Source: a virus (taxonomy: Duplodnaviria > Heunggongvirae > Uroviricota > Caudoviricetes). Taken from it: 35,453 nt of DNA. Below, one piece after another: positions 17,701 to 26,700 of this stretch; within the stretch, counting starts at the first letter, position 1, and every line of letters begins with the position of its first letter. The position numbers were made by a program. The stretch lies in the IMG/VR virus record IMGVR_UViG_2908567220_000004; one strand, 5' to 3'.

Positions 17701-20700
17701 AATACATTATGAGTTCTCGGAAATTGTTTGCTGCCAAGTCATTGTTTGCTCTAGCTATGGCTATTGCTGGTGCCCATTTTTTACACGACCTAGATCACAA
17801 TGCTGTCATTTCGGCTGCTGGTGCTCTTTCAACTATTTCTGGAGTTCTCTTTGGTTTTGTTTTGGCATCAGTCACCATGCTAAGTAGCTTTGATAGTTCA
17901 AAGGGAATTGTAGGCGCTCTAAAAAGTAACGGAGTACTAAAAGGCATTATTGAGGGGCTTTTTGATACAGGAACTACGCTGATCACAGCCTGCCTATTAG
18001 CAATGATCTCGATGTTTGCCCCTGTTGTCAGCAATCTGCCTCTGGATTATTATGCCCTGCTACTCGCAGGGGCATATTTGATTATATCAATGATAACTTT
18101 TTTCTTTAACTGGAAATCTTTATCTAAAATAATAAGTTACATATGATAAATATTTCAAAATGAGTCCCCCTGCTACGGATAGTCCTTGGCTTAAAAAATA
18201 CCGTCACCGCTGAATACCCACACAGTGCCCCCACCCATTTAGTTGGCATAATGTATTCAACTGATTGAGGAATGGCTCCTCTTTTACTACCAAACGGCCA
18301 TCGCTGGCGCATTCATCCGCTGGTAGTGGAACTTTTTAGCCATCAGCGCCTCCCTAAATCAATTCCTTACATCGCTCAAATTCAACAACCATTGTTGTAA
18401 TCTTGCTGCTATCAAGTAACGCCTTTGTATTACGCCGACTTTATCTTGCCAGCAACATACGCCATCCGATAATTTCGATGTTACGCGCGCGTACTTGTCG
18501 CAAAATATCAGACAAAAGCCAGATTCAGAACGTCGTGATAACCACCAGCACAACATGAAAGGTCATGTAACGCGATTTATCACACCAGATACATGTGATT
18601 GGTGTACCCGCATAAAACATTGTCATAGCGCGTCCTGTGCGCATATAGGCCGATAATCAACACATCACCACCACTCTGTCTCATGTAGAGAACAGTTTTA
18701 TGGTATCCCCCGCCATCGTGTGTGTATTGGTCGGACGTAGTTGCAAAATTTTTTGCAACTGATACCCCTCGCGCGCGTACTTGTCTCGAAATTGGTGTTT
18801 TGCTGTGGCAGTGATATCAGAAAAATCTTCCTGTTTCACATAAAGCGGATATGCGCGTACTGTAACGACCCCATCAACGGGGGCGGATTTGAAATCCCGA
18901 CCCTAGCTATGTACCAAATGCCATGTCTTGGATATATGATGATTGCCAATCTAAACAACGCTAAAGGGAGGGTTGGTGTGAATGCTCAGGCTGTCATCAT
19001 GGTTTTCCTTGGTCTGATTGTCGCAAAACTATATCCAGACTGGTGGAAAGGGGCATTAGCAACTGTCGCCATCTATTTGCTTTTATCCGTCGTTAAGCGA
19101 TCGTTCGCTAAGACCATAAATCAAGCAAAACGTTTCTCATTTAAGAATTTAATAAACTATATTACTGGTCTTATTTTTTGCCTTTCAATTTTGATCGCTT
19201 CAGCTTTTTTGCCCGTATCAATAGCTAATTTTTTTGGCGCATCATATGAGGTAGGTTATCTATTCTCTGTTTTTTGTCTTGTTCTTGCCCTTCTTTACCT
19301 GTGGATGAGAGCAAAGAACAAAAATTAGCCATCCGTGGCTAACCAGTTATTGAGCTTCTTTTTGTGATGCCTGTGCGACTCTGGTGAGCGATTGTGTGAC
19401 CGTACTGATCGCTCTGTCATATGCTGTGCTACCTTTTGGCGTATTTGCCAGACGTAACAAGGCATTTCGTATAACAGGGCTTTCGTATGCCTTCGCTGCT
19501 CCGCCTACGGCACCAGCAGCAGGAACAACAAACGCAGCCGTTTTTAGCATCCCCGCTAATACTGCTGCGTTTATGATGCCACCACCAACTAACAATCCAT
19601 AAAGCTGCTGACCATTTAAGTTTTGAACGTTCGCTTTTGCCGCGTGTCTTGTATCGTTGAGGTATTTAATAACGCCGTCCAGTTCCTTTCCATGTACGCC
19701 TTTAAAGAAAGTTGCTGATTGCTTCCTGTTCCGGTGTAACGCATTAATAAACTTCTCAACACTGATATTTCCAGACGGATCAGTCGCCTTATCTACAGCA
19801 TTCTGAACTATGGCCGCTCGTGCGTTTTGCCTACCATTGTCATCCAGAAGCCTGTAAAGCTGAGAACGTTCTGATGGGCTTTGGCTAAAAACGAGTTTTG
19901 TTACATCCTCAGGCGTGGCCTTGCCGCTGGCTATTGCCTTTTGAACGCGCGTTCTTCCCATCATGTCATTGAATTTAGACCATGAGCGATCAACCCTTGC
20001 CATATTAATGGCTTCGTCTGCTCCAAGATTTTTGGCTACGGCTTTTTTCATATCCGCCGTATATGCCTTGTAGATAATATCGCTGGCTTTCTGGAGCGTA
20101 TCTTTATCAACAGTGTCAGATGACGCCATAAATCGCTTTCGAAGATCGGTTCTGTTTTCCCTCGCCAGACGCAGGTCATTTGGTCCGCTGGTGATATCGT
20201 CTTTAAATTGCTGCAAGACTTTTACCGCGGCTCTATCCTGAGATTTGCCCGGGCGGCTTAACACGGCAATCTGATTGTCGATAGCTTTTACCGTGTTTGA
20301 GAGATCGACAGGGGTATCCCCCATAGCGTCAATTATGCGGTTATATCGCTTTCCTGCTGCCTCAATGAATTTTTGTTGCCCTTTAGTCGCAGATTCATAA
20401 AGCTGTTTATCAGAAATGCCACCCAGACCATCGCTAAATGTTCTGACTAAATTTTCTCGTGCTTGTTGTTGATTCAGCCGATTCTTACCGGTTCCAAAAA
20501 AAGGAACTCTTTCGCCTAATGTCTGAGCCTGACTCTGCATAAAGGTTTTATCTTTCAGCATGTCACTGGTCATTAACGGCAGATTTCTTTCCGATGCAAA
20601 GTCGACAGCAGCCTTTGCTTCAGGCGACATATCACCACGAACAGCCCTCGAAACCGCACTCGCTGTATTTTCCAGCCCCTTACCAATACCACCAATGCCA

Positions 20701-23700: not shown

Positions 23701-26700
23701 ACCATGGTAATGCTGTTAAGGAATGGTGAGTTTTCGAGAAGCCATTTGCAGAATAATCGATGCCCTTGCAGTGCATATTCACCACGGAATCCGGGGTCGT
23801 ACACCGCATGGCATTCAACAACGCTATGCCAGAAGTTACGCACTTCATGAACGCCAGCCAGCACTAATCCTTCGTAGATGCCGAGATATACCGCATCAGG
23901 CTTGATGTAGTACGTGTGCCCCGGCTCAACAATATTTTCGGTATTGCCTGGCTCGTTAAGAAAGGCCTGTAATCGCACAGGGTTATCAATAAATTTTAGT
24001 TCCATGCGATGCCATCCATTTTCACATACAGCCTGCCAGCGCCTTATCTATTAACCCTCGTGCAATTTCATGCAGAGTTGGCGCTACTCCAATTCCTGAT
24101 TTTTTACGCTGCTCTTCCTGAATTTTCTTTATCGCTTCCATTTGCTTCTCACTTATCAATACCGGCTTTACTGAAATAGCCATAACGCCCCTTAGAACTG
24201 TATAAAACAACAGTTATTATAGTTTCACAAATCGCAATATTCATCATCGTAATTGCAAAATATGAAACAAATAGCACAAAAAAATGCCACCGCTCAGTAG
24301 CTGGTGGCATCGTTCTGTGTGTCAGGTTTTGACAGGTTTTTTATGGACTCTAAAAACTATATTTATGGTGTCGCATTACTCTTCACGGCAGGCGCTTTTC
24401 AGTTCTGCCCTTGCTTCTGGCTCCATTGGTAATTTGATTCGCGATCAGCTATGCGGATGGTTTGCTGAACAGGCATAACAACTTCTCAGAGGCTGTTTTT
24501 TGAACTACGAAAATTTCGTAGTGCTCACTTTCAAAAACGTCACGCCCTTGTACACAGGATTTTACGAAAGTCTCGTAAAACACTCTCTGATGCCAGCCAG
24601 GTGTTGTGCGCATCAATTCAGTCACATTGTGTTGGTTCAAAATACCGTGTTGTTGGTTCAGTGTTGGTTCAATAAAAAGAATAAAATCCTTATAAAACAA
24701 TACTCTTTACAAATTGAACCAACTGAACCAACTGAACCAACACCTTTTCTACGCACATGAAGAAGCTCATTCTTCAGATGAGTTATAATCTCCTGGCTGG
24801 TAATTGAGTACATAAACGTTTATTTGTCGTCCCTGAATACGTGGTGATTTTCTTTGGTATCCACGACCGCTGTTTGGTGGGGTTAGCATCCCGGCTTTTT
24901 TCAACACTTCAGCAAACTGTTTTGCGTTGAAACCACATGCGATCTCCTTTTCAAATGTGGCCGGGAATGTGTAGAAAATCATTGGGCTTTCGTCATGTTC
25001 TCCACGCTGACGGTATCCGGCTAAATCTTTGATGGGCAAATCTGCCGGGCTGTATGGAAATGGTGCAAAACGGCTAAGCCCATAGGCATTAAGAAATGCC
25101 TCCGTTTGTTCAATAATCTGCTGATGCTCTTTGTTACCTGTGCCGAACTCGCGCAACCATGCGTTATAGCTGTGCTGTATCGCATCACGGCATGTCTGAG
25201 CATCCCAGCCTGTTACAACCTCGCCTAACAACAATGCGGCCTCCAGAATGGCAAATCGCGCGGCTACACGGTGAACCTGCTCACCATAATCGGATGGGAT
25301 CAGGCTTCTCCATCTGCTTTCGCAATCACGAACGGTTTTAATAGCCTGTTGCTGGTGGTCTGCCAGCCATTTAATCCACTCACGCCCGGACGCGCCGTGG
25401 TGATGCTGGTAAGCGTCTTTCAGTGCGTCTGCGTGCTGTTTTCCGTTCTGGTAATCGTGAAAGCGTACTGCTTTACTCAACGGAATATTCAGCAGTCGCA
25501 CCAGTTGCCCGGCTTTGGTTTTTCGCCCGGAAGTAGCGATAAATGTTTCTAAATCCATTTCTCCGGTGCTGATTGCCACTGTACGCCAACGTTTTAGATC
25601 CCGGTTTCCACCATCTTTAGCGCCTTGCAGTTTCCCTACACCGTTAAATAACGCATAGGCAGACTGTGAAACGCTGACAGGATCAGCGCCCTGACCAACT
25701 TCATCAAGCGGCATTAGTCCGTCATTGTGGGCGGCGGCCTCATTTGCCAGCCCCAGCGCGGTTCCGTACCACGTCAGCCGCAGTAAATCAGGGTTGCCGT
25801 ATAAGCTGCTCGCCACGTTTGCCGTGGTGGTCTTACCTGCGCTCGACTGCTCATAGAAATGAATGCCGAACCCGTCAGCGCCCACCAGCCCAATCAATGG
25901 CGCTGCCAGTGCTGCGCCGATCCCGGTCATCATTGAATAGTTACCAAAGGCCAGACGCGCCACGTTATCACGCCAGCTTTTCGCGCTCCCTAAGACGGTA
26001 TATCCGGCTGCGGCTGAGCTTCTCCCGCTGAACAGCACAGGATTTTCAGGTGTTCCGATGATTTCCCCATCAGGCATGATGTACGCTCCGCATTGCCAGC
26101 CAGTGGCATGAGCAACACGCCACAATTCACGAGAGCCACTGCGTTGTAGCCAGTCTGCCAGTATTGCTCTGAGGCTGCTTTTGGTCGTGACATTTACCCC
26201 ACCAGCTTTAAGTGTGCGCCATCCTTCACGTTCACCAATATCAGCCAGTGGAATGGCAGCGGTTGTCGGCGTTTCAGAACCAAACGACAGCCAGCGAAGA
26301 ATGAGATACTGGTCTTTATCGTCTCTGCCAGTACCGATAACGCTTAACGGAGAACATAACCAGCTTTCGTTATTGATGATTTCTCCACTCTGGCTGTCAG
26401 CTCTCGGAGATACCCAATAAATACCATCCTCGCGGCTTTCTATTCTTGGTTTCAGTGGGTCGGTATCCATAACCTTAAAATCGCTTCCCTCAATGGTCTG
26501 TGGCTCCTGTTTCACGCCATCACCCTGTGGTTGGTACATTGACTTATTGAACGCTTCTGTGGCGCATTTAATGCCGTGTTTTTGGTGGTAATCATTCCAG
26601 TCTGCTTTGTGATCTGTCGGGGGTAATGCCACCCATCCAGAAACAGATAAAGCTGCTTTTTCTGCTGCTATTCTCCCCGTGTTTTGTCTTCCTTCGCTGT

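Follow-up and report, generated by a model that had tools for sequence, protein, structure and literature searches.

The window analysed here, that is, the whole 35,453-nt stretch of the Caudoviricetes record IMGVR_UViG_2908567220_000004 from IMG/VR, contains an island integrated at the tRNA gene thrW, and on the minus strand of this island lie four coupled genes which, judged from their sequences, almost certainly form a complete P22-type ejection-protein cassette consisting of a gene-14-family assembly factor and homologues of gp7, gp20 and gp16. The gp7, gp20 and gp16 proteins of P22 leave the virion and form the conduit taking the DNA across the cell envelope. Calling of open reading frames (ORFs) places the four genes, encoding 153, 225, 473 and 701 aa, exactly where the initial annotation had put them, in the order 14-7-20-16, all intact and each start overlapping the preceding stop, by 7, 1 and 1 nt in turn. 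The range assigned there to the module (19347-24183) also takes in a leader ORF of 53 aa preceding the cassette (24022-24183, minus strand), which is without match in Pfam or PHROG and, judged by eye, may encode a ribbon-helix-helix regulator. The 153-aa protein (23544-24005) is a gene-14-family member of the Kapi1 type (DUF2824, PF11039, E 1.5e-61; 207 bits at a cutoff of 25 in the family scan), the family being annotated as 'head morphogenesis' in PHROG, and shows 98% identity to its counterpart in the Escherichia coli (E. coli) island EcCIMP1 and 81% to that of phage Kapi1, the helper of EcCIMP1, versus 22-25% to those of P22, Sf6 and N7. For the 225-aa protein (22873-23550), the match to P22_gp7 (PF25688, E 2e-72) reaches 244 bits at a cutoff of 28, and identity amounts to 99.6% with EcCIMP1 and 49-57% with phage gp7s. 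The 473-aa protein (21452-22873) matches Inj_translocase, the gp20 N-terminal domain (PF16928, E 4.5e-58; 197 bits, cutoff 29.7), and is covered over its full length by phrog_917 (E 5e-112). No Pfam match was obtained for the 701-aa protein (19347-21452), which is identified by phrog_770, 'DNA transfer protein' (E 2e-163), and whose identity is 68% with the protein in the gp16 position of N7, 33% with Sf6 gp13 along its entire length and 30% with P22 gp16 (E 5e-52). A Gly-rich hydrophobic tail of the gp7 homologue (...GIGNVAGAIGGGLIGLVGGLGF) and a C-terminal hydrophobic segment of the gp16 homologue (LVGGGIINAAVLAGMLKTAAFVVPAAGAVGGAAKA) are both present as described initially, and the P22 sizes of 229, 471 and 609 aa given there for comparison are correct. 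The likeness to the P22 14-7-20-16 module pointed out in that annotation reflects a set of true homologues in the Pfam and PHROG scans and in blast identities; matches of the cassette genes in PADLOC (defence systems) or NCBIfam were not found. As a side observation, many E. coli O157:H7 and O55:H7 genomes carry a lone DUF2824 gene with the rest of the cassette absent (e.g., NZ_CP038421.1, 1522913-1523199), this gene matching part of gene 14 of the island at 92-98% identity.

The element carrying the cassette is bounded by attachment (att) repeats. The integrase-proximal one, TGGTGCCGATAATAGGAG (34010-34027, from repeat analysis), is the 3' end of the tRNA-Thr(CGU) gene thrW next to proA (34010-34085, minus strand; ARAGORN, Rfam), and the distal one, TGGTGC-GATAATAGGA (15290-15306), has a 1-nt deletion relative to the thrW end and lies at the junction with a neighbouring prophage. 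Both contain the core TCCTATTATC and, hence, the island comprises positions 15307-34009, its size of about 18.7 kb falling within the roughly 10-20 kb typical of phage-inducible chromosomal islands (PICIs). Capsid, portal, terminase, tail or lysis families were found neither among the ORFs of at least 100 aa in 15307-34009 nor among the small ORFs scanned, so that the earlier remark on missing capsid, portal, terminase and tail genes agrees with the Pfam and PHROG results. Nor are P22-like structural or early genes contiguous with the cassette inside these boundaries, and in this respect the element does not fit a defective P22-like prophage.

From the att site through integrase, primase, gp14 and gp7 up to codon 54 of gp20, the island is 98.9% identical over 11,309 nt to EcCIMP1, a 19,963-bp PICI (GenBank OR778291) at the tRNA-Thr gene between proA and yagU in E. 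coli MP1 with the same core att, TCCTATTATC (Pick, Stadel, Raivio, ISME J 2025, PMC11773190). EcCIMP1 needs alpA and int, excises and circularises only with the P22-like podophage Kapi1 present and induced, and is transduced by Kapi1 at a low rate of ~4.8e3 particles per ml (PMC11773190). It increases the immunity of lysogens to superinfection by Kapi1, non-lysogens being unprotected, does not lower Kapi1 titres on induction and has no known defence system; besides, its PerC-like protein acts as a repressor of the enterocyte effacement locus (LEE), and its second AlpA can replace the Kapi1 excisionase; crosstalk of alpA_1 with phage xis is also described (PMC11773190). The genes EcCIMP1_017-019 have been termed 'DNA transfer-like' by these authors and a packaging role has been proposed, while an ejection cassette was not identified (PMC11773190). 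The idea of a satellite, raised initially as one of two possibilities, is thus well founded in the near-identity to an island shown to be helper-dependent and transduced by Kapi1 (PMC11773190), and the window element is almost certainly an EcCIMP1-like PICI, i.e., a satellite of P22-like podoviruses. By analogy, given the 98.9% backbone identity, its excision, replication and transduction would likewise depend on a helper.

The two islands have in common the thrW site, the att core, the integrase-AlpA-AntA-Ash-primase backbone, the leader ORF, PerC, the closely matching gp14 and gp7 and the identical first 54 aa of gp20. Similarity breaks at about codon 54 of gp20, beyond which EcCIMP1 has another allele (29% overall identity), followed by a gp16 of a 906-aa lytic-transglycosylase type, in contrast to the 701-aa N7/CUS-3-like gp16 of the window (17% identity). 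The accessory genes differ as well, encoding a 232-aa lipoprotein, a second AlpA and others in EcCIMP1 but 129-aa membrane, 361-aa and 145-aa proteins here, and EcCIMP1 adjoins the vat island whereas the window copy adjoins an SfIV-like prophage. Near-identical up to gp20 codon 54 and divergent thereafter, the window island is therefore a variant of EcCIMP1 with other gp20/gp16 alleles and accessory genes. An island 99.8% identical to that of the window is found in E. coli ABU 83972 and related strains, where it lies beside the vat island with no adjacent prophage. Among 5,426 complete E. coli genomes, 112 contain at least 80% of the island and 181 at least 80% of the four-gene module.

Whether a gp7 of this kind belongs to phages or to islands can be read from a census in which relatives from the protein database, their encoding contigs and IMG/VR were compiled and 86 loci were classed by tblastn with phage and island marker proteins. 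At 17 of the 86 loci, gp7 is at least 78% identical to that of the window, and there no coat, portal, gp10 or terL gene was found, while the primase and the 53-aa ORF are present wherever the upstream sequence suffices. The other 69 loci, with gp7 identities of at most 68%, are P22-like phages with coat, portal, gp10 and terL wherever the flank suffices, and show neither the primase nor the 53-aa ORF. In this census, the leader ORF precedes the cassette in all satellite loci having upstream sequence and occurs in no phage locus. Homologues of gp7 with 70-87% identity and the same architecture come from the Citrobacter freundii complex, Klebsiella, Pectobacterium polonicum and a third E. coli site, whereas a 61% homologue in Klebsiella aerogenes sits in a complete P22-like prophage. 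Hence, the gp7 type of the window is specific to satellites and occurs in at least four genera. The cassette itself exists in four-, three- and two-gene versions, all of them having gp20 and gp16. E. coli AB_24_S34 and MP1 combine the same backbone with EcCIMP1-type gp20 and gp16, the Klebsiella island has a three-gene cassette without gene 14, in E. coli JSWP021, with a DUF5906 primase, the cassette is reduced to the leader ORF, gp20 and gp16, and in E. coli ACN001 a two-gene version with a different integrase is located between yicC and dinD. The cassette is thus a core module kept in several genera, and dN/dS values of 0.1-0.4 in most comparisons and 0.61 as the highest show that it is under purifying selection, which excludes a recent accident. 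Among its members, gp16 appears to be the one most often damaged.

Sequence exchange with phages is traceable within the cassette. Two types of gp14, about 22% identical to each other, can be distinguished, one shared by the islands and Kapi1/Louie (80-98%) and the other present in P22, Sf6, N7 and CUS-3-like prophages, and the N-terminal 20 aa of gp7 vary along with the gp14 type. Islands having their own gp7 carry an identical, private N-terminus of 54 aa on gp20, even where the remaining gp20 is only 29% identical, which suggests a contact between gp7 and the gp20 N-terminus. In islands with gp20 and gp16 only, the gp20 N-terminus is of the phage type, implying that these two-gene islands depend on the gp7 and gp14 of the helper. 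The window gp20 is a mosaic of the satellite-specific first 54 aa, a phage-like middle part and an Sf6-like end of 20 aa, and gp16 continues Sf6-like for its first 56 aa and is N7/CUS-3-prophage-like in the remainder. At the DNA level, the stretch encoding the final 20 aa of gp20 and the initial 56 aa of gp16 shows 94-95% identity with Sf6, while for the remainder of gp16 plus the membrane-protein gene downstream of it, identity is 93.7% to a CUS-3-type prophage of APEC E18006 that is integrated at argW; identity to this prophage over part of gp20, gp16 and the membrane-protein gene ranges from 76 to 94%. The gene 16 of the same, otherwise complete-looking prophage is frameshifted (extracted locus 13001-15014). 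Divergence from the helper can likewise be large, the gp14, gp7, gp20 and gp16 proteins of EcCIMP1 being 80%, 56%, 23% and 20% identical to those of Kapi1. This pattern indicates that gp20 and gp16 are swapped mosaically and that exchange with P22-like phages is ongoing.

Besides the cassette, the island harbours fragments resembling the small-terminase gene (terS) of potential helpers. A segment at 30299-30405 (plus strand, antisense to the island genes) is homologous to nt 268-374 of P22-type terS; it is 86% identical to the P22 gene, and identities of 91-92% are reached with Louie, Dewey, IME10, E212 and HZ41, which are phages of E. coli. The similarity sets in with base 1 of the packaging (pac) site annotated in P22 (22 bp), 12 of 60 positions being identical upstream of pac, 16 of 22 within it and 81 of 85 downstream; P22 and Louie themselves share only 15 of 22 positions within pac. 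The segment is kept in the island variants, the TerS frame not being retained as an ORF. About 60 nt to its left, at 30212-30236 (minus strand), a perfect 25-nt copy of nt 141-165 of CUS-3/N7-type terS is found, TGAGTTTTCGGAGTCCATAAAAAAG, and a second CUS-3-type copy of 22 nt with two mismatches lies upstream of the cassette (24337-24358). Related islands from Citrobacter, Klebsiella and Pectobacterium have this motif too, some in two copies, while the terS of Kapi1, which is of the Sf6 type, has no match in the window island. Since two unrelated terS fragments thus occur in a non-coding leader, one of them coinciding with a mapped pac site, the two segment types are probably mimics of helper pac sites and are proposed as candidates for this function. 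If so, the poor transfer of EcCIMP1 by Kapi1 with its Sf6-type terS would be explained, and phages with CUS-3-type or P22-type terS would be predicted as better helpers.

The remaining island genes follow the organization of a PICI. Leftward from thrW, the order is integrase, AlpA, a 143-aa protein, the AntA-family protein, a DUF4222 protein and the 'Ash' region, then several small ORFs, primase, iterons, a terminator, the 53-aa ORF and the four cassette genes, and beyond these a convergent gene for the 129-aa membrane protein, two accessory genes, a second iteron cluster and PerC. The integrase (32630-33844, minus strand) is a P4-type tyrosine recombinase of 404 aa with Arm-DNA-bind_3, Phage_int_M and Phage_integrase domains. 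Downstream of it, where EcCIMP1 has its master activator, a 67-aa AlpA regulator is encoded (31999-32202, minus strand; PF05930, 71 bits at a cutoff of 21); the AlpA proteins of MP1 and ABU 83972 share one accession, WP_000035054.1. A 277-aa AntA/AntB antirepressor-family protein follows (30722-31555, minus strand; PF08346, phrog_5817). An isrK-like RNA (30095-30172, minus strand; RF01394, 69 bits, cutoff 50) and a C4 antisense RNA (29945-30032, minus strand; RF01695, 81 bits, cutoff 45) predicted by Rfam fall inside an ORF annotated by RefSeq as a 355-aa 'Ash family' protein (29486-30553), and the N-terminal half of this ORF probably does not code for protein but forms a leader with RNA immunity of the P1/P4 type. 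The CUS-3-type terS motif was also considered as a target of the C4/isrK RNA of the island, and this was rejected as the duplex energies are within the range of shuffled controls.

A 919-aa primase-helicase with zinc ribbon, Toprim and DUF927 domains (24767-27526, minus strand; phrog_1139, E 1e-177) is directly followed at its 3' side by an iteron cluster (24631-24741) of six copies of TGAACCAAC, three per strand, arranged around an AT-rich spacer. With 11 copies of this iteron in the window versus 0.32 expected by chance, the cluster is probably a replication origin. A second, inverted cluster upstream of perC (16160-16259), 8.4 kb away and with a core about 90% identical over some 110 nt, brackets the cassette and accessory genes together with the first one, and this duplication could provide another origin or a regulatory site common to both regions, or else be a scar of recombination. 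Between primase and cassette, the conserved region 24184-24520 (minus strand) comprises a palindrome, TACGAAATTTTCGTA, an intrinsic terminator (24301-24286) and a TATAAT -10 element with a weak -35, and it is nearly identical among island variants with different primases or integrases. Copies of the palindrome TACGAAA(N)TTTCGTA occur at 24506-24520 and 24563-24577 upstream of the cassette and two more in 15665-15700 near the far island end, and a regulator of the island may use this palindrome as its operator. The consensus scan upstream of the cassette gave no good sigma-70 promoter on the minus strand, and similarity to the PR'/qut regions of P22, HK620, Kapi1 and N7, as would be indicative of a Q-dependent late promoter of the helper, was not found there.

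Convergent with gp16, the 129-aa multi-pass membrane protein (18939-19328, plus strand) occupies the place of sieA in P22 and is 89% identical to a protein at the same position in a genuine CUS-3-type, i.e., P22-like, prophage. A relationship to SieA was rejected, as blastp similarity to P22 SieA and the motif FnRYPnEAnnFNK of SieA types A-C are both absent; the protein could be an exclusion protein of another type. The two accessory genes in 16611-18146 (plus strand), encoding proteins of 361 aa (phrog_7651) and 145 aa (a membrane protein, phrog_8552), are without match in PADLOC, Pfam or NCBIfam and are candidates for an undescribed anti-phage function; sister islands have an Abi-family gene in the same region. 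The series ends with a 95-aa PerC-family regulator (15836-16123, minus strand; PF06069, 114 bits). Genes of the P4 type for psu, delta and sid gave no PHROG or Pfam match among the island ORFs.

The left part of the window (1-15306) is a second element, a lambdoid prophage in tandem at thrW, the integrase of which (387 aa) is of the P22 type. The early region of the prophage shows about 97% identity to SfIV, SfII, SfV and PhiR63_1, two insertion sequence (IS) transposase genes (1-504 and 1761-2741) are situated just past the gene for the Q antiterminator (3612-4406), and its virion genes fall outside the window. The island separates thrW from this prophage and makes use of the short terminal att repeat alone, and the resulting junction was found in no complete E. 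coli genome of the collection. The other possibility raised initially, namely that the cassette is a recombination product with the neighbouring, supposedly P22-type prophage, is not supported, because ABU 83972, MP1, JSWP021 and others carry the same island but not that prophage, because the island is also found at other sites and in other genera, and because the prophage has an SfIV/SfII/SfV/PhiR63_1-like early region and is interrupted by IS elements past Q. The neighbouring prophage is not the source of the cassette.

Compared to the module of P22-like phages (14-7-20-16 in P22, genes 10-13 in Sf6, 055-058 in Kapi1), the island cassette is alike in gene order, coupling, sizes and families as well as in mosaic joints such as the Sf6-type junction between gp20 C-terminus and gp16 N-terminus. 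In contrast, the phage module lies in the late operon between the tail-needle gene 26 and the tailspike region, whereas the island cassette follows the primase gene and the origin and has its own leader ORF, terminator and promoter-like region, together with the satellite-only gp7 and gp20 N-terminus. The island resembles the classical Gram-negative PICIs (EcCICFT073, EcCIEDL933) and P4 with respect to integrase, AlpA, primase with origin, PerC and, presumably, helper dependence, and its C4/CI-type immunity RNA is as in P1 and P4; set against P4 alone, the likeness is confined to integrase type, AlpA and the C4-type RNA. Unlike these elements, it carries no Rpp/Ppi-type, capsid-size, psu, sid or delta genes, its presumed helpers are headful podoviruses instead of cos siphoviruses or P2, and the module after the primase consists of ejection proteins. 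Although this kind of island is already known from EcCIMP1 (PMC11773190), the satellite-specific gp7 type, the mosaic gp20/gp16, the two-, three- and four-gene cassettes and the terS copies of two types are new. In the literature searched, neither a complete, mosaic ejection cassette common to the family nor the pac-mimic segments have been explicitly recognized.

Taken together, we favour an interpretation, held with about as much confidence as doubt, in which the island is a satellite induced by the helper, equips the helper's procapsids with ejection proteins of its own and is packaged via pac mimics. When a P22-like helper enters lytic growth, AlpA would switch on the island, which would excise and replicate from the iteron origin beside the primase gene. 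Helper terminase would then package the island DNA by the headful mechanism, starting at the terS-derived pac-like segments at 30.2-30.4 kb, and the cassette would be expressed and its proteins loaded into helper-built procapsids, giving particles with a satellite-specified conduit. We infer both the function of the cassette and the incorporation of island proteins into virions from the sequence. The benefit would most likely be a DNA delivery freed from the highly variable gp20 and gp16 of the helper. Satellite DNA could enter cells that block P22-type injection, for example by SieA-like inner-membrane exclusion, which maps to gp16/gp20, and the cassette could also rescue particles from helpers with defective ejection genes. 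In P22, hybrids work with very divergent ejection-protein sets, and SieA-escape mutations map to gp16 and gp20 (bioRxiv 10.1101/2023.08.15.553423). A more far-reaching proposal, offered tentatively and rather to be doubted than believed, is that a whole satellite family swaps the helper's conduit for its own, with its own gp7 and gp20 N-terminus docking on helper virions, exchanged gp20/gp16 alleles passing envelopes or SieA-like blocks that stop the helper, and packaging via mimics of two helper pac sites.

Several observations weigh against such a use of the cassette. Since ejection proteins are loaded before DNA packaging, helper genomes would receive the satellite proteins as well. Transfer of EcCIMP1 by Kapi1 is low (~4.8e3 particles per ml), and the pac 22-mer of the island matches at only 15-17 of 22 positions. 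A simple evasion of exclusion is weakened because several ejection-protein sets that differ greatly are excluded by SieA of types A and B (bioRxiv 10.1101/2023.08.15.553423), and the island gp16, inspected by eye, retains the equivalents of the P22 SieA-escape sites G532 and P546, that is, shows no natural escape signature. Finally, damaged copies exist, gp16 being truncated in ABU 83972 (extracted locus 19337-21152) and frameshifted in AB_24_S34.

Such damaged gp16 genes would suit an inert relic, i.e., a piece of a dead P22-like prophage fused to the island, but this is hardly credible in view of a cassette maintained behind the same leader ORF and upstream region despite different integrases, primases, sites and host genera, of dN/dS values below 1, of four intact ORFs in the window and of the close relative EcCIMP1 being functional. 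Rather unlikely, albeit deserving attention, is a role in defence or exclusion, in which the island's ejection homologues would act as dominant-negative decoys jamming incoming P22-like conduits or poisoning helper virions, thereby protecting the host population instead of promoting transfer of the satellite. The contribution of EcCIMP1 to superinfection immunity of Kapi1 lysogens with no known defence system on it (PMC11773190) would fit this, as would the lack of any PADLOC match in the window island and the action of SieA-type exclusion at the gp16/gp20 conduit. However, Kapi1 titres on induction are unchanged by EcCIMP1 and non-lysogens are unprotected (PMC11773190), decoys would need neither the full gene order and coupling nor the gene-14 assembly factor that are kept here, and other exclusion candidates exist in the 129-aa membrane protein of the window island and the 232-aa lipoprotein of EcCIMP1.

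A role in packaging or capsid assembly, as proposed for EcCIMP1_017-019, by which helper packaging or heads would be redirected to island DNA, finds some backing in the 'head morphogenesis' annotation of the gene-14 family and in the cassette's position directly after the primase, where other Gram-negative PICIs carry packaging or capsid-remodelling genes. Yet gp7, gp20 and gp16 are established ejection proteins for which no part in recognizing DNA is known, packaging specificity could be gained more simply through the pac-like terS fragments, and two-gene variants dispense with gene 14, making this role improbable. The cassette might insure the helper by complementing decaying prophages with broken ejection genes, as the CUS-3-type prophage whose gp16 is closest to that of the island has a frameshifted gene 16 and a parallel exists in the crosstalk of EcCIMP1 alpA_1 with Kapi1 xis (PMC11773190). 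Being only 41-57% identical to the phage versions, the satellite gp7 clade and the private gp20 N-terminus go beyond the needs of a back-up, and we regard insurance as very unlikely to be the main purpose, noting that it overlaps with the delivery of satellite DNA through an own conduit favoured above.

Known satellites steal capsids, tails or packaging specificity. In the literature searched, no satellite has been described as supplying proteins that carry DNA into the next cell, and if the cassette works as proposed, it would add a new step at which satellites manipulate helper virions. Should replacement of the helper's conduit hold true for the family, ejection proteins would constitute a new class of satellite 'piracy' module, and the poor mobilisation of EcCIMP1 by Kapi1 would be explained. 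A working cassette would also provide, in its four-, three- and two-gene versions and the matched gp7 and gp20 N-terminus, natural material on which the fit among gp7, gp20 and gp16 can be studied. For extraintestinal pathogenic E. coli, the cassette is of relevance to gene flow as well, the island lying beside the vat toxin island (e.g., in ABU 83972) and carrying a PerC-like virulence regulator.

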